In this document: positions 1-40,743 of the stretch, piece by piece | How positions within the stretch are numbered: the first letter of the stretch is position 1 | Layout of the letters: every line of letters begins with the position of its first letter | Assembly (NCBI GenBank): GCA_902481965.1 | Contig: CABSYH010000001.1 | Coordinates: 1-42,409, forward strand | Length of the DNA stretch: 42,409 nt | From: an uncultured Collinsella sp. | GTDB lineage: Bacteria > Actinomycetota > Coriobacteriia > Coriobacteriales > Coriobacteriaceae | Reading direction: 5' to 3' | Position numbers and translations under genes: made by a program | Notes under the pieces: generated by a model | What the model was told of the DNA's origin: nothing | Database searches by the model: none | The model's input: only the letters and a program-made list of their open reading frames with translations

Positions 1-296
1 GATCCGGTCCGACCGGGCCGCGCGGCAAGGAGATATATTGCCAGACCGGAGGGGCCCCGGGGGCGGGAATCTGGTACTCCATATTTTGTTCACAAATAAA
101 TAGGTCCCTCAGTCGCGTCACTGAGGTTAATAACTGAAGCATCAGCTTCTGGTATTGGCGACGACCAGCTGTTTTATGTGTATTGAGGCATCGGTCATCT
201 CTGGAGCGCCACTTTACTCCAAAAGCATCAGCCATTTGTTTCCCGTCGGTAAAAGGCAGGTTTTGTTCGCCAAGCGTTCTTATATGTAGAGAAGTT

Positions 297-541
297 CGGG
301 TTCGAACCCGTGAAAGGGCGACAAAAAAGACGGCCAACCGAAGTTGACCGTCTCAACAATCTTTGGGTGGGCCGTCAGGGGTTCAGCCTGCTCCGCAGGC
401 GGCCGCTGTGGCGCTTCACGCCTTGCGCGCTGCGCTGACAAACGTTCACGCGTTTCCTCAGCCCCGCGCCCCGACGGGTTCGAACCCACGTCGCGGCAAC
501 AAAAAAGCGGCCGGCATCTGCCAGTCGCTTTTCTATTCTAT
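297..541 (-). repeat. tRNA-Lys-linked repeat units: 19-bp copy of the tRNA 3' end, T-arm-like hairpins and terminators
   Basis: ggtgggccgtcaggggttc at 366-384 equals 542-560; gggttcgaaccc at 298-309 and 476-487, each followed on the plus strand by an A-tract plus hairpin (323-353, 501-532). Confidence 0.8.
501..532 (-). terminator. Intrinsic terminator downstream of tRNA-Lys
   Basis: aaaaaagcggccggc-atct-gccagtcgctttt hairpin; gives a U-tract on the minus strand. Confidence 0.7.
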
Positions 542-616
542 GGTGGGCCGTCAGGGGTTCGAACCCTGGACCTTGGGATTAAAAGTCCCCTGCTCTGCCA
601 GCTGAGCTAACGGCCC
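541..616 (-). tRNA. tRNA-Lys (anticodon TTT)
   Basis: Reverse complement GGGCCGTTAGCTCAGCTGGCAGAGCAGGGGACTTTTAATCCCAAGGTCCAGGGTTCGAACCCCTGACGGCCCACCA forms a 76-nt cloverleaf with encoded CCA. Confidence 0.97.
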
Positions 617-644
617 GCGGGTGGCATTGTACCACGGTCTGGGA

Positions 645-1937
645 CTATTCCCAACTCCATTGGCCGTTCTGGAAAATCACAACTTCACGTCCATCGGACG
701 TAATGCCCGTAATATCGATGTCGTCCGTACCGATCATAAAGTCGACATGCGTGCTCGAAACGTTAACGCCATGCTCCAGGAGTTCCTCTTTGGACATGTC
801 GTACCCGCCTTCGATGCATTCAGGGAAACCAACACCCAACGCAAGGTGACAGCTGGCGTTCTCGTCATAGAGTGTGTCATAGAACAGAACACCGCTTTCG
901 CGAATCGGCGTATTTTTGGAGATAAGCGCGACCTCACCCAGATGAGCAGCGCCTTCATCGGTGTCAATAATGCTCGCAAGTGTTGCCTTGCCCACGCGAG
1001 CGTCGTAGTCCACCACGCGGCCGCCCTCGAACTTAATCCAAAAATCGTCAACCTTGTTACCGTGATGAATGAGCGGCATAGCCGAATACACGATACCGTC
1101 GGCACGCATACGATCGGGCGAGGTGAAGACTTCCTCGGTGGGAATGTTGGGGAAGAAGGGGTGTCCATCGGGCGTCTTGCCCTTGCCGCCGGCCCACTCG
1201 TGACCCTTCGTCATGCCAATCGTCAGATCGGTTCCATTTGCCGCGGTGTAATGCAGGTAGTCGAAACGATTGTCGTTCAGGAAACGCAGGTTCTTTTCGA
1301 ATGCGGCGTCATGGAGTTCCCAGTCGCTCTCCGGGTCCTGGCCATCGGCGCGCGCGGTGTGCAGAATCGCATTCCACAGTTTATAGATTGCAACCTCATC
1401 GGCGTCTCCTGGGAACACCTCGTGCGCCCAAGCCACGACCGGAGCGCCGGCGATGCACCACGGATTGATGTTGTAATCCAGTCCACGGCGGAAAACTTTG
1501 CACTGCGTATTCCTCGCCTTTGATGCCGCGGCCGGCTTGGCTGGATCGATGCCCTTGAGGGCCGCAGGATCCGCACCTTCGATAAAGACAAAGCAGGCAC
1601 CATCCTGGGCCAAGGAATCCAGCTGCATGCGCTTCCACTCGGGTGTCTGCTCAAAATAGCTTTTCTCGACATGCTCGTACGTGAGCCTCGTCACGGCATC
1701 ATCGGCCCAAATGACCGTCACGTGGCCGGCGCCGGCAGCATAGGCCTCCGCGACCACCACGCGCGCAAACGGCGCGCACTCGACCGGAGACTGAACGACG
1801 ACTTCCTGGCCGGGCTTAACGTTTACGCCCTTGCGGACGACCAGGCGCGCGTAGTTTTTAATCTTGGGCTCCAGGGCCTTCATGCCCTCCAGAGCCTCTT
1901 CGACCGTCAGGGCAGCTCGAATCATGTGCCACTCCAT
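645..1937 (-). CDS. Aminopeptidase, M29 family (PepS/AmpS-like)
   Basis: Motifs NIPTEEVFTSP, GEVAL, TLYDENASCHLALG and HVDFMIG are typical of M29 peptidases; start may be a few codons downstream. Confidence 0.92.
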   Translation of the reverse strand: MEWHMIRAALTVEEALEGMKALEPKIKNYARLVVRKGVNVKPGQEVVVQSPVECAPFARVVVAEAYAAGAGHVTVIWADDAVTRLTYEHVEKSYFEQTPEWKRMQLDSLAQDGACFVFIEGADPAALKGIDPAKPAAASKARNTQCKVFRRGLDYNINPWCIAGAPVVAWAHEVFPGDADEVAIYKLWNAILHTARADGQDPESDWELHDAAFEKNLRFLNDNRFDYLHYTAANGTDLTIGMTKGHEWAGGKGKTPDGHPFFPNIPTEEVFTSPDRMRADGIVYSAMPLIHHGNKVDDFWIKFEGGRVVDYDARVGKATLASIIDTDEGAAHLGEVALISKNTPIRESGVLFYDTLYDENASCHLALGVGFPECIEGGYDMSKEELLEHGVNVSSTHVDFMIGTDDIDITGITSDGREVVIFQNGQWSWE

Positions 1938-1953
1938 CTATCTATAGAACAGT

Positions 1954-1984
1954 AAAAAGGCGCGCCGCAAAAACGACGCGCCTT
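1954..1984 (-). terminator. Intrinsic terminator of the purC transcription unit
   Basis: aaaaaggcgcg...cgcgcctt hairpin with a minus-strand U-tract. Confidence 0.6.
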
Positions 1985-2014
1985 ATATCTTAGCGATAAG
2001 TATGTATACAAACG

Positions 2015-2590
2015 CTACTTCTTCTTGGAGTCCTTCTTGTCCTCCTCGGCAGCCGCGCGCTCAATAAGAGCGTTGAGCTTGTTCTCGGACATGCCCTCGG
2101 CCTGCGCGCGGTACATGTTGCGCAAGGGACGAATACGAGCGAAGTCATAGATAAAGTCGCCCAAAATGATGACATAGGACAAAACAATGCCGACCATCTG
2201 GACAGGGCTGGACACCATGCCAGCGGGAGCGAAGTACAGCGAGGCCCAAATTGCCACGACGAGCACCATGCCAATGGCGAGCACAATCCACCAGATGCGA
2301 CGGCGCTTGGTGTAGTCCTCGTCCTGCTTGAGGAGGATATTCGACACCGTATAGATGCGGTCCTCCTTGGCACGCTGCTTAGCCTTGCGGGCGCGCTTCT
2401 CCTCTTTAGAGAGGCCCTCGAGGTTCTCGCCCTTCTCGAGCTCTTTGCGGCGTGCCTTAGACGAAGCCGGCACGACGCGAACGGAGCTCGCTGCTTGGCG
2501 GGCGGGCTTAGCAGATGCGGCAGACTTGCGCGCAACCCCGGTAACTTCGTGGGATTGCGTGCGCTTGTTCGTGGCGCTACGGGTACTCAC
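2015..2590 (-). CDS. Hypothetical membrane protein: basic N-terminus, two TM helices
   Basis: 191-aa ORF; GTG start abuts the purC stop; hydrophobic segments IWWIVLAIGMVLVVAIWASLYF and MVGIVLSYVIILG. Confidence 0.8.
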   Translation of the reverse strand: MSTRSATNKRTQSHEVTGVARKSAASAKPARQAASSVRVVPASSKARRKELEKGENLEGLSKEEKRARKAKQRAKEDRIYTVSNILLKQDEDYTKRRRIWWIVLAIGMVLVVAIWASLYFAPAGMVSSPVQMVGIVLSYVIILGDFIYDFARIRPLRNMYRAQAEGMSENKLNALIERAAAEEDKKDSKKK

Positions 2591-3478
2591 TTATGCGTTC
2601 TCCTTCATGCTTGTGAACTGGGAGCCCGTGATGATCTGGAAGGCCTCGCGATAGCGCTCGGACGTGCCATCGATGACCTCGGCGGGCAGGTGCGGGGTCT
2701 CCCCCGTCATATCCCAGTTGGCCTTGAGCCAATTGCGGACGAATTGCTTGTCGTAGCTAGGCTGGATCTTGCCCTCCTCGTAGCTGGCAGCAGGCCAGAA
2801 ACGGCTGGAGTCGGGCGTGAGGCACTCGTCGATCAGCGTGACCTTGCCATCAATAACACCAAACTCGAACTTGGTGTCGGCAATGATGATGCCACGGGTC
2901 GCGGCGTACTCGGCAGCGGCCTTGTAGATCTTGAGGGAAAGGTCACGAATCTGCGTGGCGATGTCCTCGCCCACGATCTCGCAGCAACGCTCGAACGAGA
3001 TGTTCTCGTCGTGGTCACCGATCTCGGCCTTCGTGGACGGCGTGAACAGCGGCTCAGGAAGCTTGGAAGCCTCGGTCAGGCCCTCAGGCAGCTGGATGCC
3101 GCAGACGGTGCCGTTCTCGTCGTAGGTCTTCTTGCCCGAACCGGTCAGATAGCCGCGGACGATGCACTCGATAGGAATCGTCTGGGCCTTCTTAACCAGC
3201 ATGGCGCGGCCAGCGAGGTAGTCACGATACTCAGCAAACTCCTCGGGGAAATCCGCCGGGTCGATGGAAACGAGATGGTTGGGGACGATGTCGGCAAACT
3301 TATCGAACCAGAATGCCGAGATGCGATTGAGTACCTCTCCCTTAAACGGAATCTCGTCGGGAAGAATGAAGTCGAACGCAGAAATGCGGTCGGTGGCAAC
3401 CATCAGCAGGTTTTCACCGGCATCGTAAATATCACGAACCTTGCCACGGGAATCCGGACGACGCTCCATCGTTGTCAC
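2591..3478 (-). CDS. purC: Phosphoribosylaminoimidazole-succinocarboxamide synthase
   Basis: GKVRDIY, ATDRISAFD, ECIVRGYLTGS, IIADTKFEFG, LTPDSSRFW, DKQFVR; GTG at 3478 is suitably spaced from AGGAG. Confidence 0.96.
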   Translation of the reverse strand: MTTMERRPDSRGKVRDIYDAGENLLMVATDRISAFDFILPDEIPFKGEVLNRISAFWFDKFADIVPNHLVSIDPADFPEEFAEYRDYLAGRAMLVKKAQTIPIECIVRGYLTGSGKKTYDENGTVCGIQLPEGLTEASKLPEPLFTPSTKAEIGDHDENISFERCCEIVGEDIATQIRDLSLKIYKAAAEYAATRGIIIADTKFEFGVIDGKVTLIDECLTPDSSRFWPAASYEEGKIQPSYDKQFVRNWLKANWDMTGETPHLPAEVIDGTSERYREAFQIITGSQFTSMKENA

Positions 3479-3587
3479 GTGAGTCACTCCTTACCTAAAT
3501 ACGACAGAAATGCGGGTTCTTTCCCGCATGTTTTCGCAAACTCGGAGCGGCAGGGACGCGGCCCCTCCTTCACCGAATAGCGAAAAG

Positions 3588-5153
3588 CTAGTGCTCCATT
3601 GTAGTAGATGCCGCGTCTGCCGTGTGCTCGCGGGGCAGATGAATTGTAAAAGTCGTACCCTTTCCAAGCTCCGACTCCACGGATATGTAGCCATGGTGAC
3701 GCTCGACGATCTGCTTGGTCACGGCGAGGCCAACGCCCAGGCCGCCGGCTTCGCGGGCGCGGCTGGCATCGGCGCGCCAAAATCGTCCGAAGATACGCGA
3801 CAGATCGTCCTTGGCAATACCGATACCGGTATCAGAAACGGCAATGCTGACGTGCTTGCGGTCACTGAGCACCGACACCACGACCCAACCGCCCTCGGGG
3901 GTGTAGCGCATGGCGTTGCTCATGAGGTTGATAACACATTGCGTGATCATGTCGGGATCGGCCTCGACGACATCGTCGTGACCCTGGGTCTCGTCCGCAA
4001 AACGCAGGCGCAGATCGCGGTCGACAAACAGGCGCTCCTGGGCATTGACGATGGAACGCACGAAAGGAACCATGTCCACCGGCTCAAGGTTGAGCGGAGC
4101 CGTGCTGTTTTCCATGCGCGACAGGTCGAGCATCTTCTGCACCAGACGAGCCAAGCGGCGCGTCTCGGAAGCAACGGTCTCTAAATGCTCATCGTCGGTG
4201 GGATACACGCCATCCTGCATGGCCTCGACCGTTGCGAGCATGGCCATAAGCGGCGTGCGAAGCTCGTGTGCAACGTCTGAGGTCAGGCGCTTCTCGTGTT
4301 TCATATCCTTCTCGAGCGAAGTGGCCATCTCGTCGAAGGTCTCTCCCAGCTGATCGATTTCGTCATCGCCGCGCAAGCCCGTACGAGCGGACAAATCGCC
4401 GTCGCGAATCTGCTTGGCGGTGCTGGTAATACGATGAATCGGCTTGGTGAGCATGCGCGACACGAGCGATCCGATAATGACCGAAATGCAGATTGCAACA
4501 ACCGCGGCGAGGGCCATGGCGTTAAAGGTCTTCTCTCTGAATGCTGAATCTGCCCTGGTGAGCAGGGCATCGGAGCCAATCGCCCACAATTTGACCTGGC
4601 CCACGTGCTCGCCGGAGGACGTCACGATCTCAACGTTGGCAACACTATTGGAATCGGTGGGAGCAGACGAGACTGGGCTGTGCGATGCCCTCTTGCCGCT
4701 CGTGTCGTCGGTCGTCGCCTGATTTTCGCGTACATCGGCAGTAGCGCTTGCCGAGGGCCAGGAATCGTCATAAACGATCACGCCCTTTTTATTGACGACC
4801 TGCATGCCCAGATCGTCGGAAACCAAACTCGACGTTGCGACCGTGCGCAGTTCTCCCGCGGTCCAAGAGCCGTTTTCCTCATATGAGGTTGCCAACTTCT
4901 CGGCAGCGGAATTTGCGATTTCGACGATATTGGAGCGTGTGTAATCCGAAAAGACCGTGCCCCACACAACAGAGACAACGCCCACCAGCACCAATACCGT
5001 CATGAGCGATGTCAGAGCAAAAGCAAGTGCCATGCGCGAGGGATAGCTCATCGTTGGCCGTGAATCGGAACGAGGCGTGTTCCAACTAGCCTTGGAACCC
5101 GCCTCGCTCTCCTGCTTGTGCTTTTGTCCGATTTCAAAGCGCGCAGGTGTCAT
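3588..5153 (-). CDS. Membrane sensor histidine kinase (HAMP-HisKA-HATPase, BaeS-like)
   Basis: Two TM helices, HAMP (DEIDQLGETFDEMA), H-box AHELRTPL, N-box NLMSNAMRY, DTGIGI, GLGVGL. Confidence 0.95.
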   Translation of the reverse strand: MTPARFEIGQKHKQESEAGSKASWNTPRSDSRPTMSYPSRMALAFALTSLMTVLVLVGVVSVVWGTVFSDYTRSNIVEIANSAAEKLATSYEENGSWTAGELRTVATSSLVSDDLGMQVVNKKGVIVYDDSWPSASATADVRENQATTDDTSGKRASHSPVSSAPTDSNSVANVEIVTSSGEHVGQVKLWAIGSDALLTRADSAFREKTFNAMALAAVVAICISVIIGSLVSRMLTKPIHRITSTAKQIRDGDLSARTGLRGDDEIDQLGETFDEMATSLEKDMKHEKRLTSDVAHELRTPLMAMLATVEAMQDGVYPTDDEHLETVASETRRLARLVQKMLDLSRMENSTAPLNLEPVDMVPFVRSIVNAQERLFVDRDLRLRFADETQGHDDVVEADPDMITQCVINLMSNAMRYTPEGGWVVVSVLSDRKHVSIAVSDTGIGIAKDDLSRIFGRFWRADASRAREAGGLGVGLAVTKQIVERHHGYISVESELGKGTTFTIHLPREHTADAASTTMEH

Positions 5154-5164
5154 ATGTGATTTCC

Positions 5165-5887
5165 CTATTTCTCGTCCGACTTATCGGTCTTGGCCGGAGC
5201 CTCGAAGCGATAGCCGACACCATGGACGGTGTAGAGCCACTTGGGCTTCTTGGGATCATCGCCCAGCTTGGCGCGAAGGTTCTTCACGTGGCTATCGATG
5301 GTGCGCTCATAACCCTCAAAGTCATACCCGAGCACCTTCTCGACCAGCTCCATGCGGTTATACACACGGCCGGGATGGCGGGCAAGCGTGGTGAGCAGCT
5401 TGAACTCGGAAGCCGTCAGGTCGACTTCCTTGCCCTCGACCAAGATCTTGTGGCCCGAGATATCGATGACCAGATCGCCGAAGTCGAGTACCTCGACGGC
5501 GGGCTCGTCGGCCTGATGGGCACGGCGGAACAGAGCGCGAACGCGGGCGACGAGCTCGCGCGGCGAGAACGGCTTAATCAGATAGTCGTCGGCGCCGAGC
5601 TCAAGACCGATAATACGGTCCTCGATCTCACCCTTGGCAGTCAGCATGATGATGGGGACATCCGAGGTATCGCGAATGGTGCGGCAAACGCGCTCGCCGG
5701 GGATCTTGGGAAGCATAAGGTCGAGCACGACCAGGTCGAACTGATGCTTCTCGAACTCCTCGATCGCGGACTGGCCGTCGCCGACGCCCACAACCCAGTA
5801 GCCTTCGCGCTCGAGATAGGCAGCGACGGCGTCACGGATTGCCTTCTCATCCTCGACCAGCAGAATCTTTTTTGCATCTGAAGCCAT
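5165..5887 (-). CDS. OmpR/PhoB-family response regulator
   Basis: ILLVEDE, VLDLMLP, MLTAK, GADDYLIKPF, wHTH with RTIDSHVKNLR and TVHGVGYRF; ATG at 5887 preferred. Confidence 0.95.
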   Translation of the reverse strand: MASDAKKILLVEDEKAIRDAVAAYLEREGYWVVGVGDGQSAIEEFEKHQFDLVVLDLMLPKIPGERVCRTIRDTSDVPIIMLTAKGEIEDRIIGLELGADDYLIKPFSPRELVARVRALFRRAHQADEPAVEVLDFGDLVIDISGHKILVEGKEVDLTASEFKLLTTLARHPGRVYNRMELVEKVLGYDFEGYERTIDSHVKNLRAKLGDDPKKPKWLYTVHGVGYRFEAPAKTDKSDEK

Positions 5888-6040
5888 AACACGGCCCCCC
5901 TGTCTCAATTAGCTAAGAACAAGCCCATTTTAACGCACCTGAGCCCGCCGGATGCCGCTATGACGCGGCAGCTCGGCGGGCGGTACTCACAATTACAACG
6001 CGTTTATTCCCCTGTTGGCGCCTTTTTAACCCCTCTAAGC

Positions 6041-7252
6041 TTAAAGAGAGAATAGGCGTGCAGTGACCGTCTCGGGTATACCCTGGCTGTTGCGTACCGT
6101 GGCGTACGTAAGAAATGAGTCCGACTTTCCCGCCGTAGCTGGATAATCGCCATACTCTAAAGCGCGGTCGGGCGACAGCAGCGAGCCATAGGTCTTGGCA
6201 GAGGTGTCGATCAGGAAATGCGACGCCTGTACCTTAACAAGGTATTTATTCTTCTTGCCAGCCGCACATGCGAGCGGCTCGCGGGACAGGAAGAGATACG
6301 GCCCTCCCTCATTACCGATATACGTGCCCATGTTGCCCAGGCTGCCCACGCCACTATAGGTCGCCTCGATAGAAAACACGAAGGTATCGCCCATGTATAC
6401 GGCCTCGAAAGGCGAGACTGACGAGGGAAGAACTAGCTGGGCACGTTTGGTGTTGTTGCCGTCGGTCAGATCGATTGCCGTTATGCCGTAGTAGACGCCT
6501 TCGTCGTTGCGGACACGCGGCGAGATGGTCAAAATGCCGTCGCACGCGCGCGGGGCCGATGCAAAGCGGCCCGTCGATTTCCAAATTACCCCGGCCTTGG
6601 ATTCATCAAGCGAGCGACGATAGCAAAACGAATCGCTACTCGTTTTATTGCCGCCTGCCGAAGGCATTTTATACCAGATGACTGATGACCCGAACGCCGT
6701 AAACAGCGGCGGATCATAGTCCTTGCCACCTCGATCGAGCTCAACCACGTCGCCAGAGAGCGAAGCGCCCGACAGATTTTGACCGTAGAGCTTCCACGAT
6801 GAATTGGCAAAGTTCATCTCAACCCACGCGAATACGCTGTCGCCGGCACGGACATCGTAGAATGCATATCCCGTGCCCTCGATAGGATCCTCGATTAATG
6901 TGGTAAGCGAGCCATCGCCCAGGTTGAGCACACCGAGTGTGTTGGCGTGCAGTGCCGATGCGGGCGCCATCATCGCCGCGGCGTAATCGCCGTCGCAGTA
7001 GTACAGCAGCGTACCCAGAGGCAGCGTCCATGACGCCGCCGGCTCAAGATCGATGTCGACTGCCTCGTACTCATCCGTAATCGAGATAATTTTGGAATCG
7101 TCCTTGATAACCTGCGGCTCGCCGGCGGCATCATCGCTGGTGCCCGTTTTTTTCGAGCATCCGGCAAGCACCGTGGCAGCGCCCGCGGCAGCCCCACCGA
7201 GTACAAAGCCGCGACGCGATATTCCGTTCTTGATGTGATCGGCGATACCCAT
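6041..7252 (-). CDS. Tat-exported lipoprotein of unknown function
   Basis: Twin-arginine motif SRRGFV followed by lipobox LAGC; beta-rich body. Confidence 0.8.
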   Translation of the reverse strand: MGIADHIKNGISRRGFVLGGAAAGAATVLAGCSKKTGTSDDAAGEPQVIKDDSKIISITDEYEAVDIDLEPAASWTLPLGTLLYYCDGDYAAAMMAPASALHANTLGVLNLGDGSLTTLIEDPIEGTGYAFYDVRAGDSVFAWVEMNFANSSWKLYGQNLSGASLSGDVVELDRGGKDYDPPLFTAFGSSVIWYKMPSAGGNKTSSDSFCYRRSLDESKAGVIWKSTGRFASAPRACDGILTISPRVRNDEGVYYGITAIDLTDGNNTKRAQLVLPSSVSPFEAVYMGDTFVFSIEATYSGVGSLGNMGTYIGNEGGPYLFLSREPLACAAGKKNKYLVKVQASHFLIDTSAKTYGSLLSPDRALEYGDYPATAGKSDSFLTYATVRNSQGIPETVTARLFSL

Positions 7253-7515
7253 TAGGCGATCTCGGCGCGAGCGGCCTCGATAGCGCGTGTAAGCTGGTCG
7301 GCGCAGGAGGTCTTTTTCATACCGCAGGTATTACCGGCGAGAACCTCGATTACGCGATCGGCAGGAGCGCCCTCGACCAGCTTGGAGATAGCCTTGAGAT
7401 TGCCGTCGCAGCCGCCGGTAAACTCAACGCCCATCACCTTGTTGCCGTCATCGGAAAGGTCAAGGTGAATATTGCGAGCACACACGCCCTGAGGCTTGTA
7501 ATCAAACGAAATCAT
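7252..7515 (-). CDS. Small 4-Cys TSCPD-domain protein (TIGR03905-like)
   Basis: GVCAR, FTGGCDGNLKAISKLVEG and CGMKKTSCADQL match this family's pattern as I recall it. Confidence 0.85.
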   Translation of the reverse strand: MISFDYKPQGVCARNIHLDLSDDGNKVMGVEFTGGCDGNLKAISKLVEGAPADRVIEVLAGNTCGMKKTSCADQLTRAIEAARAEIA

Positions 7516-7643
7516 GCGATCCCCTCTCAGAATGTTATTCGAGACGACTATTATCCCCGTCTTTCCCTAAATGCAACGAGGCGCTTTGCCGGCAACACAC
7601 ATTACCAGCAAAGCGCCCTAAAAATCTAACGTTATGCCCGAAC

Positions 7644-8990
7644 CTACTCGAAGCTCAGCTGCTCCAGACGATCAAAGACCGTATCAATGCGGGTGAGGAA
7701 GTCCCACGGATCAAAGATCTCGTCGAGCTTCTCCTGACTGACGGTGCAGCGCGGGTCGGCCTCGAGACGCTCCTTAAAGGTGGGGCCGGAGACGCAATCC
7801 TGTACCTCGTGCCAGGTTGCCATGGCGTTCTCTTGCACAATGGCGTACGCGTCCTCGCGGGTGATGCCCGTATCGACGAGGGCGAGCAGCACCTTGGAGG
7901 AGAAGATGAGGCCGCGCGTCTTGTTGAGGTTGGCCATCATGCGAGCGGGATACAGCTGCAGGCCGTCGATAACGCGGATGAGGCACTGGAACATGTGGTC
8001 GAGGGCGATGAAGCTGTCGGCCTGGGCGACGCGCTCGGCGGAGGAGTGCGAAATGTCACGCTCGTGCCACAGGGCGACGTTATCGAAGGCAACCTGGGCG
8101 TTGGACTTCACGACGCGCGACAGACCGCAGACTTTCTCCATGGTGATGGGGTTGCGCTTGTGCGGCATGGCGGAGCTGCCCTTTTGGCCCTTACGGAACG
8201 GCTCCTCGGCCTCGAGCGTATCAGTCTTCTGCAGGTTGCGGACCTCGGTAGCGATGCGCTCGCAGGTGGCCGCGGTGGTGGCGAGAACGCCGGCGAGATA
8301 GGCGTGATGGTCGCGGCTGATAACCTGCGTGGACAGCGGGTCGTGAACCAGGCCCAGGTGCTCGCAGACATACTCCTCGACAAACGGCTCGATGGAGCTG
8401 TACGTGCCGACAGCGCCCGAGATGGCACCGAAGGCAACATTCTTGCGAGCGTCCTCAAGACGATCCAGATCGCGCTTGAGCTCCCAGGCCCAAGAGCCAA
8501 ACTTCATGCCGAAGGTCATCGGCTCGGCGTGGATGCCATGAGTGCGGCCGGCACAGAGCGTGTTGCGCTCCTCGAAGGCACGACGCTTGCAAATCTCGCC
8601 GAGCTTCTTGACATCCTCGATGATCAGGTCGCAGGCCTGGGTGAGCTGGTAGCACAGGGCCGTGTCGCCCAGATCGGAGCTGGTCATGCCATAGTGAACC
8701 CAGCGGCTGGGCTTGGGGTCGCCCTCGGGAACATCGGCATCGATGTATTCCTTCATGTTGGTCAGGAAGGCAATGACGTCGTGGCGCGTGACTTCCTCGA
8801 TCTCATCGACCTTCGCCTTCTCAAAGTTGGCATGGTCGCGGATCCACTGGGCCTCGTCTTTGGAAATACCGATCTTGCCGAGCTCCGCCTGGGCCTCGCA
8901 GGCCAGAACCTCGATCTCCTGCCAAATGGCGTACTTGTTCTCGAGGGAGAAGATGTGTCCCATCTCCGGGCGGGTATAGCGATCGATCAT
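7644..8990 (-). CDS. purB: Adenylosuccinate lyase
   Basis: MIDRY start after AGGAG; RHDVIAF, HYGMTSSD, GRTHGIHAEP, GSSAMPHKRNP. Confidence 0.97.
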   Translation of the reverse strand: MIDRYTRPEMGHIFSLENKYAIWQEIEVLACEAQAELGKIGISKDEAQWIRDHANFEKAKVDEIEEVTRHDVIAFLTNMKEYIDADVPEGDPKPSRWVHYGMTSSDLGDTALCYQLTQACDLIIEDVKKLGEICKRRAFEERNTLCAGRTHGIHAEPMTFGMKFGSWAWELKRDLDRLEDARKNVAFGAISGAVGTYSSIEPFVEEYVCEHLGLVHDPLSTQVISRDHHAYLAGVLATTAATCERIATEVRNLQKTDTLEAEEPFRKGQKGSSAMPHKRNPITMEKVCGLSRVVKSNAQVAFDNVALWHERDISHSSAERVAQADSFIALDHMFQCLIRVIDGLQLYPARMMANLNKTRGLIFSSKVLLALVDTGITREDAYAIVQENAMATWHEVQDCVSGPTFKERLEADPRCTVSQEKLDEIFDPWDFLTRIDTVFDRLEQLSFE

Positions 8991-9092
8991 AGCGGCTCCT
9001 TTTTGGTTATTGGCACGTTGGTCGTAACCCAACCATTGTACCGTGCGCAGGTGCAAGTATGGGCAGCAGGCATTAACCTAACATTTTGGAAT

Positions 9093-9415
9093 TGGAGCGG
9101 GCATGGGGACGTCCGCGTATTCGCTTCGCAAATCCGCACCGGCTTCAGGCGAGCCCCTCAGCCTCACGAAGCCGCGGGGGAAGACTTTGTTGAATTGGCC
9201 GTCCCCATGTCTCCCGCACTCGATGGAGCGGGCAACGGGACATCCGCGTATTTGCTTCGCAAATCCGCACCGGCTTCAGGCGCCTGTCGGCGCCTTCGCC
9301 TGCTCGCTACAAACGCTTCGCGTTTGCTTTACGCTCGCACCCTGTCGGGTTCGAGTCCCGGCGCTTTATTGAAAAAAGCACGGCACCGTAATGGTGCCGT
9401 GCTTGTGCTTCTAGC
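9093..9415 (-). repeat. tRNA-Gly-linked tandem repeat units (131 bp and 192 bp)
   Basis: tggagcgggca at 9093, 9224 and 9416; 40-bp core at 9112-9151 vs 9243-9282 is 39/40 identical. Confidence 0.85.
9372..9404 (-). terminator. Intrinsic terminator downstream of tRNA-Gly
   Basis: aaaaaagcacggcacc-gtaat-ggtgccgtgctt perfect stem with a minus-strand U-tract. Confidence 0.8.
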
Positions 9416-9490
9416 TGGAGCGGGCAACGGGACTCGAACCCGCGAGTGTCAGCTTGGGAAGCTGATGCCTTACCACTTGGCGATGCCCGC
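9416..9490 (-). tRNA. tRNA-Gly (anticodon CCC)
   Basis: Reverse complement GCGGGCATCGCCAAGTGGTAAGGCATCAGCTTCCCAAGCTGACACTCGCGGGTTCGAGTCCCGTTGCCCGCTCCA, 75 nt with CCA. Confidence 0.96.
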
Positions 9491-9787
9491 TTGTGTGTTG
9501 GCTAGTATAACGCGGTTGTCTTGTTCGATACAAGGGTGGCGATGCTTGTTTTAGCTGTGGAGAATCGTTTGAAAACCGCGCCAATTGTGGAGATGAGGAC
9601 CTTTGACCTCCTGTTCTCCCTATCTTCTACCTGCACTTTTGCTTGATTGTTATATTTGAGCTCAATTTGTCAGGAATTGGGCAAGCTTTTGGTCAGCCTT
9701 TGGTACTTACCCGCATGAAGCTCGGGGGTAGCCTCATCCTACGCGTCGCAACCTCCCCATGCGGCGCACGAGGGATAAGGAGCAGCC

Positions 9788-12700
9788 ATGTCCAACGCAC
9801 CCACGCACTCTGTCCACAGCGCAATCGCAACAGGTCCGCTGCTCCTGCTCCTCTTCCTGCTTTTCGGCTGCCTGGCACCGGGAGCCGCATTTGCCGTCGA
9901 TGGCTACGACCAGCTCGGCTTCCGCACTATTAGCGATGATTGTGGGCCCTTCTTCATCGGCAAGTATGAAGCTCAAGACACCTCGATTGCCTACTGCATG
10001 AACCAGGAGCGCCCCGGCCCCACCAAACCGGGCGGCCCATGGCTCAACTTTGATCAAGGCTGGGTGTGGCTCGACGACGAGTTCGCGGCAATCGTTTGTC
10101 ACGGATATCCCACCACCACGTCGTTTGGCGGTTACCATCTTTCACCCGATCGCGCCCGCGCCGCCACCCAGCTTGCCGTATGGATGCTCAACGGCACTAC
10201 CCATGTCGACGGCACCTACTCCTACACGACCGCTCAGGGTAAAACCAAGAGCGGACACTTTACCGCCGACAATGAAGTCGTGGCGGCTGCGCGGTGGCTC
10301 CACGACAGCGCAAAATCAGGAAGCATCGAAGCCGCTCCGCACCGCGCGCGACGCTATCTAGGGGCCGTATCGGGCGGCAGCAAACGTCAAGACATGCTCT
10401 ATGTACTGCCGGCGGTCTCTGTTTCCTTCCAAAAGCAGTCTGCTAACACCGTTATTACCAGCGGAAACAATACCTATCAGTTTACCGGGGCAACATTCGA
10501 TATTTTTGAGAGCGCCAGCGGCGCGCGTGTCGGCACCATCAAGATGGACAGCAACGGTCGAGCGCAAGCAACACTTCTGCCCAACACGGCATACTACCTA
10601 GTTGAAACGAAGGCGCCGGCCGGCTATGTCCCCCGCCACGATCGTATTGCCTTTACCACGGGGAATGACGGCGGGCGGGTCGCCATTGATGAACAGCCCG
10701 GCACCATCAATCTGCGTATCGTAAAACTCGATGCCGCGACGAATGCCGGCCCCCAGGTGGGATCTTCACTCGCAGGAGCAGAGTTCACGTGTGTGTCGCA
10801 ATCAACCCCTGGATGGGCACAAATCCTCACGACCGACGAAAGCGGTCGGGCCACCCTCGCCGATGTCCCCTTAGGAACCTTTACCATCTACGAATCAAAA
10901 ACCCCCGAGGGCTACCTGCCATCCAACGACAGCTGGACCTATACCGTTGGAGCCGACCAGCTCGGCGATTCAGGCGTGGTCGAGATCGAATCTCGCGTTT
11001 CCGATATCCCCATTGCGTTTAACCTTGAGATTTCCAAATTCAAGGATTACGGCAATAGCGACCAATCCGGCCTGGAGCAGCCGGCGGAAGGTGTTGTCTT
11101 TGAGGTTGTCAGCAACAGCTCTCAGCAGGTTGTTGGCACACTGACCACAAACGTCTATGGCTTTGCCTCCACCAAAGATCAGCCCGAAGCATGGTTCGGC
11201 GCAGGCAAGCGACCCGCCGGTGTCCACGGAGCCGTCCCATACGACCGTGCCGGCTACACGGTTCGCGAGGTTCCGGAAACCGTCCCCGAGGGTTTTAAAC
11301 GTGCAGGGGAATGGACCGTCGGGGCCAATCAGATTTCCAACGGCGCCGAGCTTCAATATATCGTGGACAACCACGCTCTGTCGACGCATCTCCAGATTGT
11401 AAAACGCGATGCCCAAACAGGCGCTTCTGTTCCACTAGCCGGATTCACCTTCCAACTCCTCGACAGCAATCACGAACCTGTCTCACAAACTTGCTGGTAT
11501 CCAACACATAACGTAATGGACACCTTTACGACTGACGCGACCGGGACCGTCACACTGCCCGAATCGCTCGTGCCGGGCACCTATTATGTACGCGAAACCT
11601 CGGCCAAAGAGCCCTATCTTGTCGGCGAGGAGATCGAGGTAAACATACCCGCCGACATGAACCTAACGCCCGTTGCAATCGCCTCGTATTATGACCACGC
11701 CGCGACCGGAAACATCAGGATCGTTAAAACCGATGCCATAGACGGCAGCAGCCTCGCGGGCGCCGTCTTTGAGATCCGTGCCTCGAGTGATATCGTGCGC
11801 CCCGACGGTAGCATTGCCGCGCTCGACGGTGAGACTGTCGCTACCATCACGACGGATGAAACTGGAGAAGCACGCGCGGACAACCTCCCGCTGGGACTTG
11901 GCACCGCACGCTACGAGGTTGTCGAGACTCAAGCGCCGGCAGGCTTCTTGCTCGATCGGACAACCCATATTGTCGACCTTACTTATGCCGACCAGAAAAC
12001 ACCCGTTGTAGAAGCACGGCTTAACGTATCCGACGATTACACCAAGGTTGATATCTCCAAGGTCGATGCAAGCGGTGAGCAGGAAGTGGAAGGCGCACAA
12101 CTCACCTTATATGGTCCCGATAAAACCGAAATAGACTCCTGGACCTCATCCGACAAGCCACACCGCGTCGAACATCTTGCACCCGGCACCTACTCGTTGC
12201 GCGAAATGATGTCTCCGCGGACCTATGACCTTGCCGAGGAAATAACGTTTGAAATAAAGGATACGAGAGAAGTCCAATCCGTCGCGATGAAGGATGCGCC
12301 CATCGAGATCAAGGGACAGGTCGACAAGCGTCAGGAACTTGTCCAACCTATCGAAAAGGGCCTGTTGGCTAACGGCGATGGTAAAAATCGCGCCGCGACG
12401 CAAACTAATACGGATGGACTTTTCTCCTATACCATCGACGCTCGAAACGATTCCGCTACTTGGGTTGATGAGTTTACGATTACCGATGATCTTGAGTGCG
12501 CCAAAGACGGCACGGCGAGATTCATCTCAATCGAAACCCCCGTCGCCATCGGCGACCTCAACGGTCTGTGCAACGTGTGGTATCGCACGACGCCGTTGGA
12601 CTCGACAGACGTCGATGAGCCGGCGAACGCGACACTTGACGATGGACACGAAAATCCTTGGCTTGAGTCCGGCGAAGTAAAAGAGAGCCTTGGTGAGGAC

Positions 12701-16900: not shown

Positions 16901-17923
16901 ATGACGGCAAGCGACACGACCGAGACAATTAAAAAGGGGAATTCGGAGCCCAGTTTCGATAAAACGGCTCAGCGCATCCTCAATCTTTTCTTTGTGCTCA
17001 ATAGCTCCCCCGAACCGCTGACGACCGAGCAGATCGTCTTGGATTCTGACCTGGGATATGGCTCGGGCAACATCGACTCGGATAAGCGCAAGTTTCGGCG
17101 CGATCGTGACAAACTGCTCGAGCGTGGCATCTTAATCAAGGAGGTTCGCCCCGCCGGCGCGCAGGAGACCGAGGAAAGCTCGTGGACAATTGACCGCGAG
17201 CACACCTTTGCAGCAGGCGGCCTCATCACCGCAGACGACGCCGATATCCTGCTCAACGCCATCGACCAGACACTAGCGGCCGGCTCATCCACTTTTGCCG
17301 CACCGCTTGCCGATATTCGATCAAAGATTGCCTACCTCACCGGTAGGACGACGGCGGACGAAGCACCGATCCGCCGCTCTCCCACCGTCGATGCGGTATG
17401 GAGCGCCTTTGCCGAGCGATGCGCGCTGCGATTTTTATATCAGAACGGACGCGGCGAGCAGAAAGAGCGCACCGTCTGCGTCTACGGCATGTTCGAGCGC
17501 GAGGGCGTGGCGTACTTCTGCGGCCTCGACAACGTCACCGACGACATCAGGACATTCCGCTGCGACCGTATCGTACGCGCTTGGCGTCCTTCGAAGGCCT
17601 ACGTCATCCCCGCGAACTTCAATCTCAACGACTATCTGTTCTTTGAATTCGATTTTGCCGACCGACCGCCCGTTGCAGCCACGTTCTCGTTCGCCCCTCA
17701 GACGCAGATCGATATGATCAACGGCCTCACGCGCGGGCGAGGTGAGCTCGCACACACCGATGCGGGATGGACCTGGACCGTTGACGTGCGCGATCTTGAA
17801 GCCGCCGCCTCATTTTGCATGGCCCACGCCATGGACGGCATGAGGCCCATGGCCCCCAAATCGCTCAAGCAGGCGTGGAACCACCTCATTGAAAGGACGG
17901 TGCACGAGTATGCCCGTGCGTAA
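16901..17923 (+). CDS. WYL-domain transcriptional regulator, PafB-like
   Basis: wHTH (RILNL...KRKFRRDRDKL) and WYL domain (RTVCVYG...DIRTFRCDRI). Confidence 0.88.
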   Translation: MTASDTTETIKKGNSEPSFDKTAQRILNLFFVLNSSPEPLTTEQIVLDSDLGYGSGNIDSDKRKFRRDRDKLLERGILIKEVRPAGAQETEESSWTIDREHTFAAGGLITADDADILLNAIDQTLAAGSSTFAAPLADIRSKIAYLTGRTTADEAPIRRSPTVDAVWSAFAERCALRFLYQNGRGEQKERTVCVYGMFEREGVAYFCGLDNVTDDIRTFRCDRIVRAWRPSKAYVIPANFNLNDYLFFEFDFADRPPVAATFSFAPQTQIDMINGLTRGRGELAHTDAGWTWTVDVRDLEAAASFCMAHAMDGMRPMAPKSLKQAWNHLIERTVHEYARA

Positions 17924-18827
17924 ACTCACCAGCGAGCAGAGGTTCTCGCGCGCCATCGACATCATGGAGGCCCTCTACGCCGCCGGCGAGAGCGGCATGA
18001 CACGAACCGAGATTTGCAGTCGCTTTGACATCACAGGGGTATCGCTCGACGAGATTCTCGAGATCGTCTCGACGCTCGCGGACCGAGAATCGGGCGCGCG
18101 CATCATCTGCGAATGCCGCGGCGAGCGTGTGGTCCTCACCGGTGACGCCGGGCGTGTGCTACCGCTGCGCTTGAGTGCCGCTGAGGGCGCTGTGCTCAAC
18201 CATGAACTTGAATCGTTGGGGATCGAGCCGCATACGGCAGCTCGGATTCGACATGCCCTTCTACCCGAAGAGCTTGGCTATAACCAGCGCGTCTTTGACA
18301 CCGTCAACCACGGGTCGCACTGGCAGCAGCTGAGCTGCGCCATTCAGGACGGCGTTCGCTGCCGCATCTCGTATCGCTCGATGGACGATGCACGGCCACG
18401 CGAGCGTCTGGTCGACCCCTTGCGCATTACGGCAAACGGCGACCAAACATACCTGATTGCCTGGGACATCGCAGTCGATGAGCAGCGCACCTATCGCATG
18501 GATAAAATCGAGGGACTCGCCTTGACGGAAGACTCCGTCGTGCCTCACGCACCGGACGTCGCATCCCTCCACGATTCCCTTGCCCGGACGCAGCGTAGTG
18601 CAAAACTCTTGATGCCATTCGATATGGCGGAGCATCTGGACTGGGCCGGCATCACCCTAATCGAGCGCAGCGGAGCAGACATGGCAACGGTAACCGTGCA
18701 TTACGGCTCCGAGCGTTGGCTACTGAGCCAGATAATTGCAGCGGGCGGAGCCATCCACATCTTGGATGACCCCGCCCTGTCAAAGCGTCTGTGCGATATG
18801 GCAAAAACCCTCGTCTGTCCGCTTTAA
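17910..18827 (+). CDS. WYL-domain transcriptional regulator, PafC-like
   Basis: ATG overlaps the upstream stop; PLRLSAAEG, RLVDPLRI, YLIAW, RTYRMDKI; WCX-like C-terminus. Confidence 0.88.
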   Translation: MPVRKLTSEQRFSRAIDIMEALYAAGESGMTRTEICSRFDITGVSLDEILEIVSTLADRESGARIICECRGERVVLTGDAGRVLPLRLSAAEGAVLNHELESLGIEPHTAARIRHALLPEELGYNQRVFDTVNHGSHWQQLSCAIQDGVRCRISYRSMDDARPRERLVDPLRITANGDQTYLIAWDIAVDEQRTYRMDKIEGLALTEDSVVPHAPDVASLHDSLARTQRSAKLLMPFDMAEHLDWAGITLIERSGADMATVTVHYGSERWLLSQIIAAGGAIHILDDPALSKRLCDMAKTLVCPL

Positions 18828-40666: not shown

Positions 40667-40743
40667 GGACCTGTAGCTCAGTTGGTTAGAGCGTCCGGCT
40701 GATAACCGGGAGGTCACAAGTTCGAATCTTGTCAGGTCCACCA
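40667..40743 (+). tRNA. tRNA-Ile (anticodon GAT)
   Basis: GGACCTGTAGCTCAGTTGGTTAGAGCGTCCGGCTGATAACCGGGAGGTCACAAGTTCGAATCTTGTCAGGTCCACCA, 77 nt. Confidence 0.97.

Follow-up and report, generated by a model that had tools for sequence, protein, structure and literature searches.

The stretch of DNA analysed here (the window) comprises 42,409 nt of an uncultured Collinsella sp. (GenBank assembly GCA_902481965.1, contig CABSYH010000001.1, positions 1 to 42,409) and represents the chromosomal origin region, with dnaA (at 30.7 kb), dnaN, recF, gyrA, parAB and rnpA. Three tRNA genes, tRNA-Lys(ttt), tRNA-Gly(ccc) and tRNA-Ile(gat), were detected by ARAGORN, and a search of the whole window against Rfam at gathering scores yielded the same three and nothing else. 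Directly behind the first two lie short composite repeat units that end in copies of their own tRNA, one full unit behind tRNA-Lys (L1) and two behind tRNA-Gly (G1 and G2), with purB directly behind the Gly array. An earlier model-made reading of the letters (the original prediction) had taken these units for one family, either a tRNA-targeting miniature element mobilised in trans or a conserved structured RNA module. Here we present the anatomy of the units, their distribution and variation among relatives, and a comparison with known repeats, among them the RtT repeats of Escherichia coli.

Read on the strand of the two tRNA genes (minus), the parts follow each other in the same order at both sites: the tRNA, a short spacer with a terminator, a copy of the T arm, a body of about 90-100 nt with three or four small hairpins, and a copy of the last 18-21 nt of the tRNA, from the T loop to CCA (Table 1). 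This common order had been predicted and is borne out by the sequence as read. The 3'-end copies of L1 and G1 agree with their own tRNA at 15/16 and 16/16 positions, respectively, and that of G2 at 14/16 (9093-9108). The T-arm copies also match their own tRNA, as predicted, but their orientation had been overlooked: the Gly copy (9344-9360, 15/17 bases) lies on the strand opposite to the tRNA and is part of an inverted repeat which, including the variable loop, extends over 22 nt (86%). The orientation of the Lys copy is unreadable in the window because its core, GGGTTCGAACCC (476-487), is a perfect palindrome. The predicted inventory of one unit per tRNA was sound for L1 and G1, but it lacked the second Gly unit (9093-9223) as well as a second Lys terminator and inverted copy (297-354), with which a truncated second Lys unit starts. 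Unrelated DNA of lower G+C content continues past the latter; this DNA (1-296) contains no convincing open reading frame (ORF), and positions 1-330 of the window gave no match in a phage collection. At tRNA-Ile, expected to lack a unit, no extra copy of the 3' end or T arm was found anywhere in the window, and no covariance-model match behind the gene.

Because the two end copies of a unit overlap on the T-loop/T-stem 3' segment and can pair with each other (CGGGAC/GUCCCG in Gly units, GGGUUC/GAACCC in Lys(ttt) units and GGGGUC/GACCCU in the Lys(ctt) units described below), a unit is in effect a T stem with a multi-hairpin loop of about 100 nt, beyond which a single-stranded acceptor strand and NCCA follow. 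In G2, the 3' 59 nt of which are 93% identical to G1, the 5' strand of the closing stem pairs with the unit's own diverged 3' copy and leaves UCCA as a tail. The closing stem is clear in the folds of G1 and G2 and in the consensus of the short units. An ending with an extra C (ACCCA versus ACCA) occurs on the unit's copy in the window (364-384 versus 541-560) and on the unit-adjacent tRNA gene at two loci of relatives (L023 and L119), a distribution that looks like exchange between a tRNA end and the unit's copy. The units were also considered as pseudo-tRNA or tmRNA genes; this was rejected, as ARAGORN and Rfam found none.

Table 1. tRNA genes and parts of the associated units in the window
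Feature	Position	Strand	Basis
Second inverted T-arm copy CGGGTTCGAACCCG, start of truncated second Lys unit	297..320	-	297-329 versus 475-507, 79%
Second, strong terminator behind L1: 12 pairs and T run	321..354	-	
L1 3' end: tail of tRNA-Lys (~20 nt, T loop to CCA) copied in direct orientation, one extra C	364..384	-	365-380, 15/16
L1 body: H1 ~440-455, H2 ~410-422, H3 ~386-400	385..473	-	
L1 5' end: T arm and 3' strand of tRNA-Lys in inverted, degenerate form, core GGGTTCGAACCC	474..500	-	31 nt 71% complementary to 536-566; 474-490, 14/17
First terminator-like hairpin and T run behind tRNA-Lys, weak, 5 pairs	501..535	-	Stem 524-511, then T run
Gene for tRNA-Lys(ttt), followed by unit L1	541..616	-	ARAGORN; Rfam tRNA, 67.6 bits
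G2: second unit, 131 nt, without its own terminator	9093..9223	-	Covariance model 37.7 bits, E 1.4e-6; fold z -2.49
G1 3' end: tail of tRNA-Gly (18 nt), copied without change	9224..9241	-	9224-9239, 16/16
G1 body: H1, H2, H3, with loops GAA, GACA, GAA	9242..9338	-	Covariance model 124.9 bits
G1 5' end: inverted variable loop, T arm and shortened acceptor strand of tRNA-Gly	9339..9369	-	22 nt, 86%
Strong terminator behind tRNA-Gly: 12 pairs, 8 of them G-C, T run	9370..9404	-	
tRNA-Gly(ccc), host of units G1 and G2	9416..9490	-	ARAGORN, Rfam
tRNA-Ile(gat)	40667-40743	+	ARAGORN, Rfam

Relatives of the units were collected in one genome scan with a body-only pattern that contains zero tRNA-derived bases; the at least 119 stretches obtained were oriented and then annotated with ARAGORN for an upstream tRNA. 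Among the loci listed, 102 have an intact tRNA-Gly(ccc) and two (L023, L119) an intact tRNA-Lys(ctt) that ends 60-110 nt upstream on the same strand, six have the 3' part of a tRNA-Gly upstream, and in two the contig end cuts the upstream side and leaves nothing readable. A further seven are without a tRNA; all of these carry non-Collinsella titles, five of them lie, as judged by eye, inside long open frames, and they look like chance matches. Thus all 110 evaluable family hits among the matches listed are located behind tRNA-Gly(ccc) or tRNA-Lys(ctt), with no family copy away from a tRNA, and this location next to tRNAs, enrichment for which had been proposed as a check, was seen with a tRNA-free pattern. 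Nearly all listed family hits are titled Collinsella. Two loci titled Oscillospiraceae bacterium (L006) and uncultured Ruminococcus sp. (L057) share 96.9% and 94.5% identity with the window along their entire length of 2-4 kb and are probably Collinsella DNA in the wrong bin. The first Gly unit stands at a fixed distance in every listed locus with a callable tRNA, and among relatives the Gly units are flanked by near-identical chromosomal DNA. Every Gly locus was ascertained via a pattern within the body of the first unit, so that empty sites are invisible to this sample and the first unit is present in every listed locus because the loci were found through it.

The third host, tRNA-Lys(ctt), is the clearest case of unit ends matched to the host tRNA. 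Its T loop reads TTCGACC; the reverse complement of this, GGGGTCGAACCC, is found at the 5' end of its units, and their 3' copy begins with GACCC, where the Lys(ttt) unit of the window has TTCGAAC and GAACCC. The Lys genes are followed by one full unit and the truncated start of a second. In L023 (147-540) and L119 the tRNA-Lys(ctt) gene itself is duplicated in tandem, a short spacer with a hairpin lying between the two copies and the unit behind the second copy only, and in L023 a tRNA-His lies upstream of the pair. At the Gly sites, the T arm of the tRNA is invariant in 102/104 listed loci. The two exceptions (L029 and L103) have A for G in the T loop, and there the inverted copy carries the mirrored change; at another locus (L052) the inverted copy equals the tRNA over all 22 nt. 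At least nine listed loci, however, show single changes in the inverted T arm with the tRNA unchanged, which suggests that the host match is renewed now and then and is not strictly kept. The proposal of one family at different tRNAs with host-matched ends was thereby strengthened, both by the third host and by the mirrored T-loop change in 2/104 listed Gly loci.

The Gly sites carry arrays of variable length: the 98 listed arrays in which both anchors are present comprise 17 with a single unit, 74 with two, six with three and one with four. The first unit measures 191-192 nt and consists of terminator, inverted copy, three hairpins and tRNA-end copy. Short units measure 129-134 nt, and later units are exactly 131 nt long in 60/90 cases; the period of the later units is about 131 nt. 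Later units have the last ~55 nt in common (H3 and the tRNA end); in the 5' half, several types of equal length but different sequence can be distinguished. One locus (L112) has two full long units in tandem. In the listed arrays, inner tRNA-end copies are identical to the tRNA in 75/89 cases and terminal copies in 31/94, as expected for tandem arrays homogenised by unequal exchange. Both number and type of units differ between genomes whose flanks are 94-97% identical, and the alleles of spacer, terminator and first unit are distributed as a mosaic, with L001 carrying the allele of the second unit of L112. This turnover between relatives could be site-specific or the result of unequal crossing-over.

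The similarity of the Lys and Gly bodies was evaluated by local alignment of 385-474 with 9242-9338, i.e., with the tRNA-derived ends removed, against dinucleotide shuffles. The alignment score of 31 (versus 19.1 +/- 3.2 for the shuffles) was reached by 15/2000 shuffles, whereas the score in reverse orientation was reached by 1725/2000; for the whole Lys and Gly units, 0/2000 shuffles reached the score. A covariance model was built from 45 distinct Gly bodies and run on the whole window (85 kb of strand). L1 was aligned end to end by this Gly-only model (381-467, minus strand) and was the best non-Gly match in the 85 kb of strand, on the matching strand and at the matching place behind a tRNA, with 12.4 bits and an E value of 0.34, below significance; the next match is a chance hit with 12.0 bits. 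All four hairpins occur in the same order and with the same loop types in the Lys and Gly units. The link between the two is modest on sequence alone but gains weight because the best non-Gly match sits at the homologous place and strand and because hairpin order and loops agree. The L1 body is clearly homologous in sequence to those of the Lys(ctt) units (score 121, reached by 0/1000 shuffles). The Lys(ctt) units in turn align with G1 at a score of 44 (versus 18.1 +/- 3.2 for shuffled sequences) and match the Gly-only model with E values of 5.6e-4 and 2e-3, values that are partly circular because the Lys(ctt) loci were found with a pattern shared with G1. The predicted shared body is therefore seen beyond chance, but only modestly so as far as sequence goes.

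The hairpin body of the first Gly unit varies less than its surroundings. Among 53 listed loci with full flanks, the mean pairwise difference was 0.036 for the G1 body (0.045 without the 20 scan-pattern positions), 0.136 for third codon positions of purB, 0.112 for the 200 nt upstream of the tRNA, 0.144 for spacer and terminator, 0.085 for the inverted copy and 0.0005 for the tRNA itself. The G1 body is thus about three times less diverse than synonymous, presumably neutral, sites, by an estimate which its ascertainment through the body biases downward.

The hairpins covary. In the Gly alignment 99.4% of cells pair, and 6/26 pairs are changed on both sides, a number reached by 0/500 shuffles; these double changes stem from two sequences only, the second unit of L112 and L028. 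Between Lys and Gly units, H3 has U-A swapped for C-G at 3-4 pairs, and a long-range helix of the short units is A-U in ten sequences and G-C in eight. The pattern is also biased between strands. On the tRNA strand the hairpin loops read G-N-N-A or G-N-A; regarding the H2 loop of 79 distinct first units, the first position is G in 79/79 and position 4 is A in 75/79, whereas the two middle bases vary. Likewise, G-U cells outnumber A-C cells in the consensus helices by 109 to 9 and 77 to 8 (hand tally of cells, which are not independent events). Loop pattern and G-U excess indicate that it is the tRNA strand that folds, be it in the form of RNA or of single-stranded DNA. In the H3 loop, TTC takes the place of GAA in 3/74 distinct later units (L051, 2236-2367; second units of L074 and L117), as if the tip had flipped.

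We tentatively read the units as tRNA-trailer modules of the RtT kind, i.e., as multi-hairpin modules closed by a T stem and tailed with a tRNA end, which are not transposon-like, and assign this reading a probability of about 0.48. Of the two possibilities originally offered, the conserved structured module accordingly fits better than the miniature element mobilised in trans, because of the fixed distance, the near-identical flanks, the low diversity of the body, the lack of an integrase, transposase or HUH nuclease among the 30 ORFs scanned in the window and the lack of a tRNA-free copy among the matches listed. Transcripts that read through the tRNA terminator would carry the units; at tRNA-Lys(ttt), the sequence of a weak first terminator (5 pairs) and a strong one after the unit (12 pairs) fits such read-through. 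Owing to their tRNA-like end, the units might then be trimmed by the tRNA 3'-end machinery into discrete small RNAs, as reported for the rtT RNA of the E. coli tyrT operon, and might serve some cellular function. Arrays would grow and shrink via unequal recombination between tRNA-end copies, and the copies would be kept host-matched by gene conversion, or by template switching, between the two arms of the inverted repeat on either side of the terminator, so that each unit would fit its own tRNA without a targeting enzyme. A bold and improbable further reading would be that processed units act as tRNA-end mimics which are CCA-repaired or even charged; some Gly units keep the tRNA-Gly base pairs G1-C72, C2-G71 and G3-C70 as well as U73.

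Several observations count against this reading. G1 is separated from tRNA-Gly by a strong terminator (12 pairs, T run), and a search on both strands revealed no promoter-like site before any unit of the window, so that expression of the units would rest on read-through. Structurally, the fold of L1 (z -0.15) is no more stable than those of shuffled sequences. Several short-unit types have a weak closing stem, as does L1, in which it measures only 6 bp as judged by eye, and single-sequence folds do not clearly separate the two strands. C-GNA-G loops are a motif of unusually stable DNA mini-hairpins, and the same strand bias would thus fit single-stranded DNA. The 5' halves of the short units are very diverse, which speaks against one strongly selected RNA. 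Local duplication accounts for the host match, but not for a similar body at both Lys and Gly genes, and ascertainment of the loci via a body pattern lowers the apparent diversity of the body and renders the Gly-model matches of the Lys(ctt) units partly circular. The RtT model of Rfam gave no match in positions 1-10000 of the window at E values up to 10 (only the tRNAs match), and the Collinsella bodies show no similarity to RtT bodies (scores reached by 317, 584 and 526 of 1000 shuffles). The parallel with RtT is therefore one of architecture only, not of membership.

It is unlikely, though it is the best of the alternatives, that site-specific recombination in the T loop has left the units behind as cassettes or scars, each a remnant or miniature of an element whose attachment site includes the tRNA 3' end, and that a recombinase encoded elsewhere inserts, excises and swaps them. 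The direct copies run from the T loop to CCA, and one class of tRNA-integrating elements crosses over in the T loop. The differences in unit number and type between genomes with 94-97% identical flanks and the mosaic alleles of spacer, terminator and first unit (L112, L001) would also fit, tRNA-Gly(ccc) is a true integration site, and repeats like those on the integrase side of L037 lie just behind G1 in L073 (both described below). As with the attachment-site (att) duplications of tRNA-integrating elements, direct repeats of the tRNA 3' end bracket DNA, stand in tandem at a tRNA and enclose strain-variable content. Unlike such duplications, the units have no integrase in or beside them, measure only 131-192 nt, the 131-nt units being very small for a recombination substrate, and have an inverted host copy built in. 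A co-occurring integrase or HUH/RAYT-type nuclease, proposed as a check, was not found: among 30 ORFs scanned in the 42-kb window no integrase, transposase or HUH nuclease family was detected, nor was an integrase seen behind the Lys(ctt) array of L023 in an ORF list inspected by eye without a family search. In the phage collection, searched with blastn in distant mode, only the tRNA parts gave matches, never the unit bodies. G1 is fixed at one distance in all evaluable listed loci, with its body about three times below synonymous diversity, and the diverged terminal copies are equally compatible with unequal exchange. The cassette or scar explanation was rated below the RtT-like reading on account of the tiny size of the units, the lack of a linked recombinase and of phage records with a unit body, and the equally good fit of unequal exchange to the array pattern.

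The one integrated element seen at tRNA-Gly(ccc) crosses over in the anticodon loop, not in the T loop. In four of 110 listed Gly-type loci (L037, L051, L079 and L088) foreign DNA containing three direct repeats of the GTAGACCAAA or GCCGCAAAA type takes the place of the 5' half of the tRNA-Gly, starting at the anticodon loop (L037, ~2100-4035; L051, 1-1900). A tyrosine integrase and a CI-like repressor are encoded beside the insertion in both loci scanned (L037 and L051), and the site marks where a prophage or comparable element has integrated. In the phage collection, the relatives of the L037 integrase have at most 26% identity among the 10 of 49 records listed, and all 49 are below 60%. The units are not explained by this element, which is located on their upstream side and has a different crossover point. 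In L073 (Collinsella acetigenes, ~2103-2300) a terminator-like hairpin and then a remnant of GTAGACCA repeats lie directly behind a single Gly unit, and only tRNA and unit of this locus align with the window (268 nt, 90%). The idea of an integrated element as carrier of the L073 unit had to be dropped, since a homologue of gyrase/topoisomerase IV subunit A follows next and the repeats are a short remnant only. An integrase-bearing island edge at the truncated second Lys(ctt) unit was likewise rejected; the next gene in L023 is a 527-aa ORF directed toward the array, which was judged by eye, without a family search, to be flavoprotein-like.

Less probable still is that the units are a functionless by-product, arising by template switching at the palindromes formed by terminator and T arms and then multiplied by unequal crossing-over. 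With the terminator between them, the inverted copy and the tRNA form a quasi-palindrome, correction of which is expected to yield mirrored changes and perfected copies such as those of L029, L103 and L052; the wide drift of the short-unit 5' halves and the at least nine listed loci with inverted-T-arm changes unmatched in the tRNA would suit a sequence of this kind. It accounts poorly, however, for a G1 body about three times less diverse than synonymous sites and the neighbouring spacer, for hairpin pairing that survives double changes, for loops in which positions 1 and 4 are kept while the middle varies, and for a similar body at unrelated tRNAs.

We consider it improbable that the units are cassettes akin to the attC sites of integrons, with folded single-strand sites anchored at a tRNA, whose ends are inverse copies of the T stem and acceptor strand of the host and on which a recombinase encoded elsewhere acts, and that the family moved between Lys and Gly genes by re-templating of its ends. 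Integron attC sites are imperfect palindromes of ~60-140 nt with inverse core-site ends, arrayed at one anchor and with one strand favoured. The units resemble them in being arrayed beside one anchor site, in their inverse-copy ends and in the favoured strand; they differ in that they have neither an IntI-type integrase nor cassette ORFs, are multi-hairpin instead of single-hairpin, and end in tRNA copies.

There is little to recommend a single-stranded-DNA hairpin repeat that prefers tRNA 3' ends, like the repetitive extragenic palindromes (REP) and bacterial interspersed mosaic elements (BIME) served by a RAYT, or one served by an IS200/IS605-type HUH nuclease. The small hairpins are stacked and have C-GNA-G loops (GCGAAGC occurs twice in G1, on the tRNA strand), the two unit ends are inverse copies of each other, and the tRNA strand is probably the lagging-strand template, given dnaA at 30.7 kb and a negative GC skew over 1-10 kb. 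REP/BIME elements, too, consist of small hairpins rich in G+C that occupy the intergenic space behind genes and are often arranged in tandem. In contrast to these, the Collinsella units are not dispersed, all listed family hits being behind two kinds of tRNA; their ends are specific for the neighbouring tRNA, not for the element; they are much longer and composite; and no HUH or transposase domain was found among the 30 ORFs scanned in the window. Many dispersed copies with element-specific ends, as in miniature inverted-repeat transposable elements, were not seen among the matches listed either.

Least likely of all is that the Lys and Gly units are unrelated, each of local origin, and that their bodies resemble each other by chance and GC-rich hairpin composition: the body alignment (P ~0.0075) is not overwhelming and the Gly-only model separates L1 from a chance hit by 12.4 to 12.0 bits, but L1 is the best non-Gly match in 85 kb of strand at the homologous place and strand, the four hairpins share order and loop types, and L1 is homologous to the Lys(ctt) units, which, although found with a pattern shared with G1, align with it at a score of 44.

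Elsewhere in the window (16901-21718), two adjacent WYL-domain proteins are encoded beside a 964-aa fusion of an RNase T-type exonuclease and a DinG-like helicase, an arrangement that may have a regulatory or defence role.

The first sequences of RtT repeats from E. coli date from the late 1970s; the repeats have no settled function and are usually treated as an enterobacterial oddity. Two sources report expression of rtT RNA in E. coli (PMC3318445; bioRxiv 10.1101/2024.07.17.603846), and the latter describes it as a processing product of unknown mode of action. In the region of E. coli K-12 used for comparison (L120), the RtT model of Rfam matches four times (133-137 bits); three matches lie behind tyrV, at a spacing of 178 nt. 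The fourth match (1564-1695) lies between tyrT and tyrV, so that every tRNA-Tyr gene of the operon has a unit behind it. Each of these RtT units ends in the last 19 nt of tRNA-Tyr, from the T loop, and has the reverse complement of this segment at its beginning; according to the Rfam consensus (RF00391), both ends pair as a closing stem, with the tail ccaCCACCA unpaired.

The RtT and Collinsella units differ in their hosts (Tyr in Proteobacteria, Gly and Lys in Actinomycetota), in the internal T-arm copy, which is in sense orientation in E. coli and inverted in Collinsella, and in the intrinsic terminators that precede the Collinsella long units. No counterpart of the tpr ORF was found by eye, without a systematic ORF scan; one unit type has one ATG frame of 14 codons. 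A literature search found no report of such units in Collinsella, which agrees with the suggestion that they might be undescribed in this lineage, but the kind is not new, since RtT has the layout.

The likeness extends over much of the plan of the unit. Both kinds are located directly behind a tRNA gene, on the same strand and in tandem, with a period of 178 nt in E. coli and of 131-192 nt here. Both end with the tail of the host tRNA from the T loop onward (19 nt in E. coli, 18-21 nt in Collinsella), and both begin with a reverse complement of it, which in E. coli closes the unit as a stem and leaves acceptor strand and CCA as a tail; in Collinsella such a stem is clear in G1, G2 and the short-unit consensus but weak in L1. 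Both contain a T-arm-derived motif together with small GC-rich hairpins, and the Rfam model measures 130 nt, compared with 129-134 nt for the Collinsella short units. The Collinsella units thus show a known, if obscure, layout at other tRNAs. Since the tRNA-end copies could be mistaken for integration scars by island-finding or att-site software, the pattern is of practical relevance as well. A sequence-unrelated counterpart in a gut actinobacterium suggests that repeat modules with a tRNA tail are a recurrent kind of element and not an accident, and it provides, next to RtT, a second system with more than 100 natural variants in which the questions whether such units give rise to RNAs and how their match to the tRNA is upheld can be addressed.

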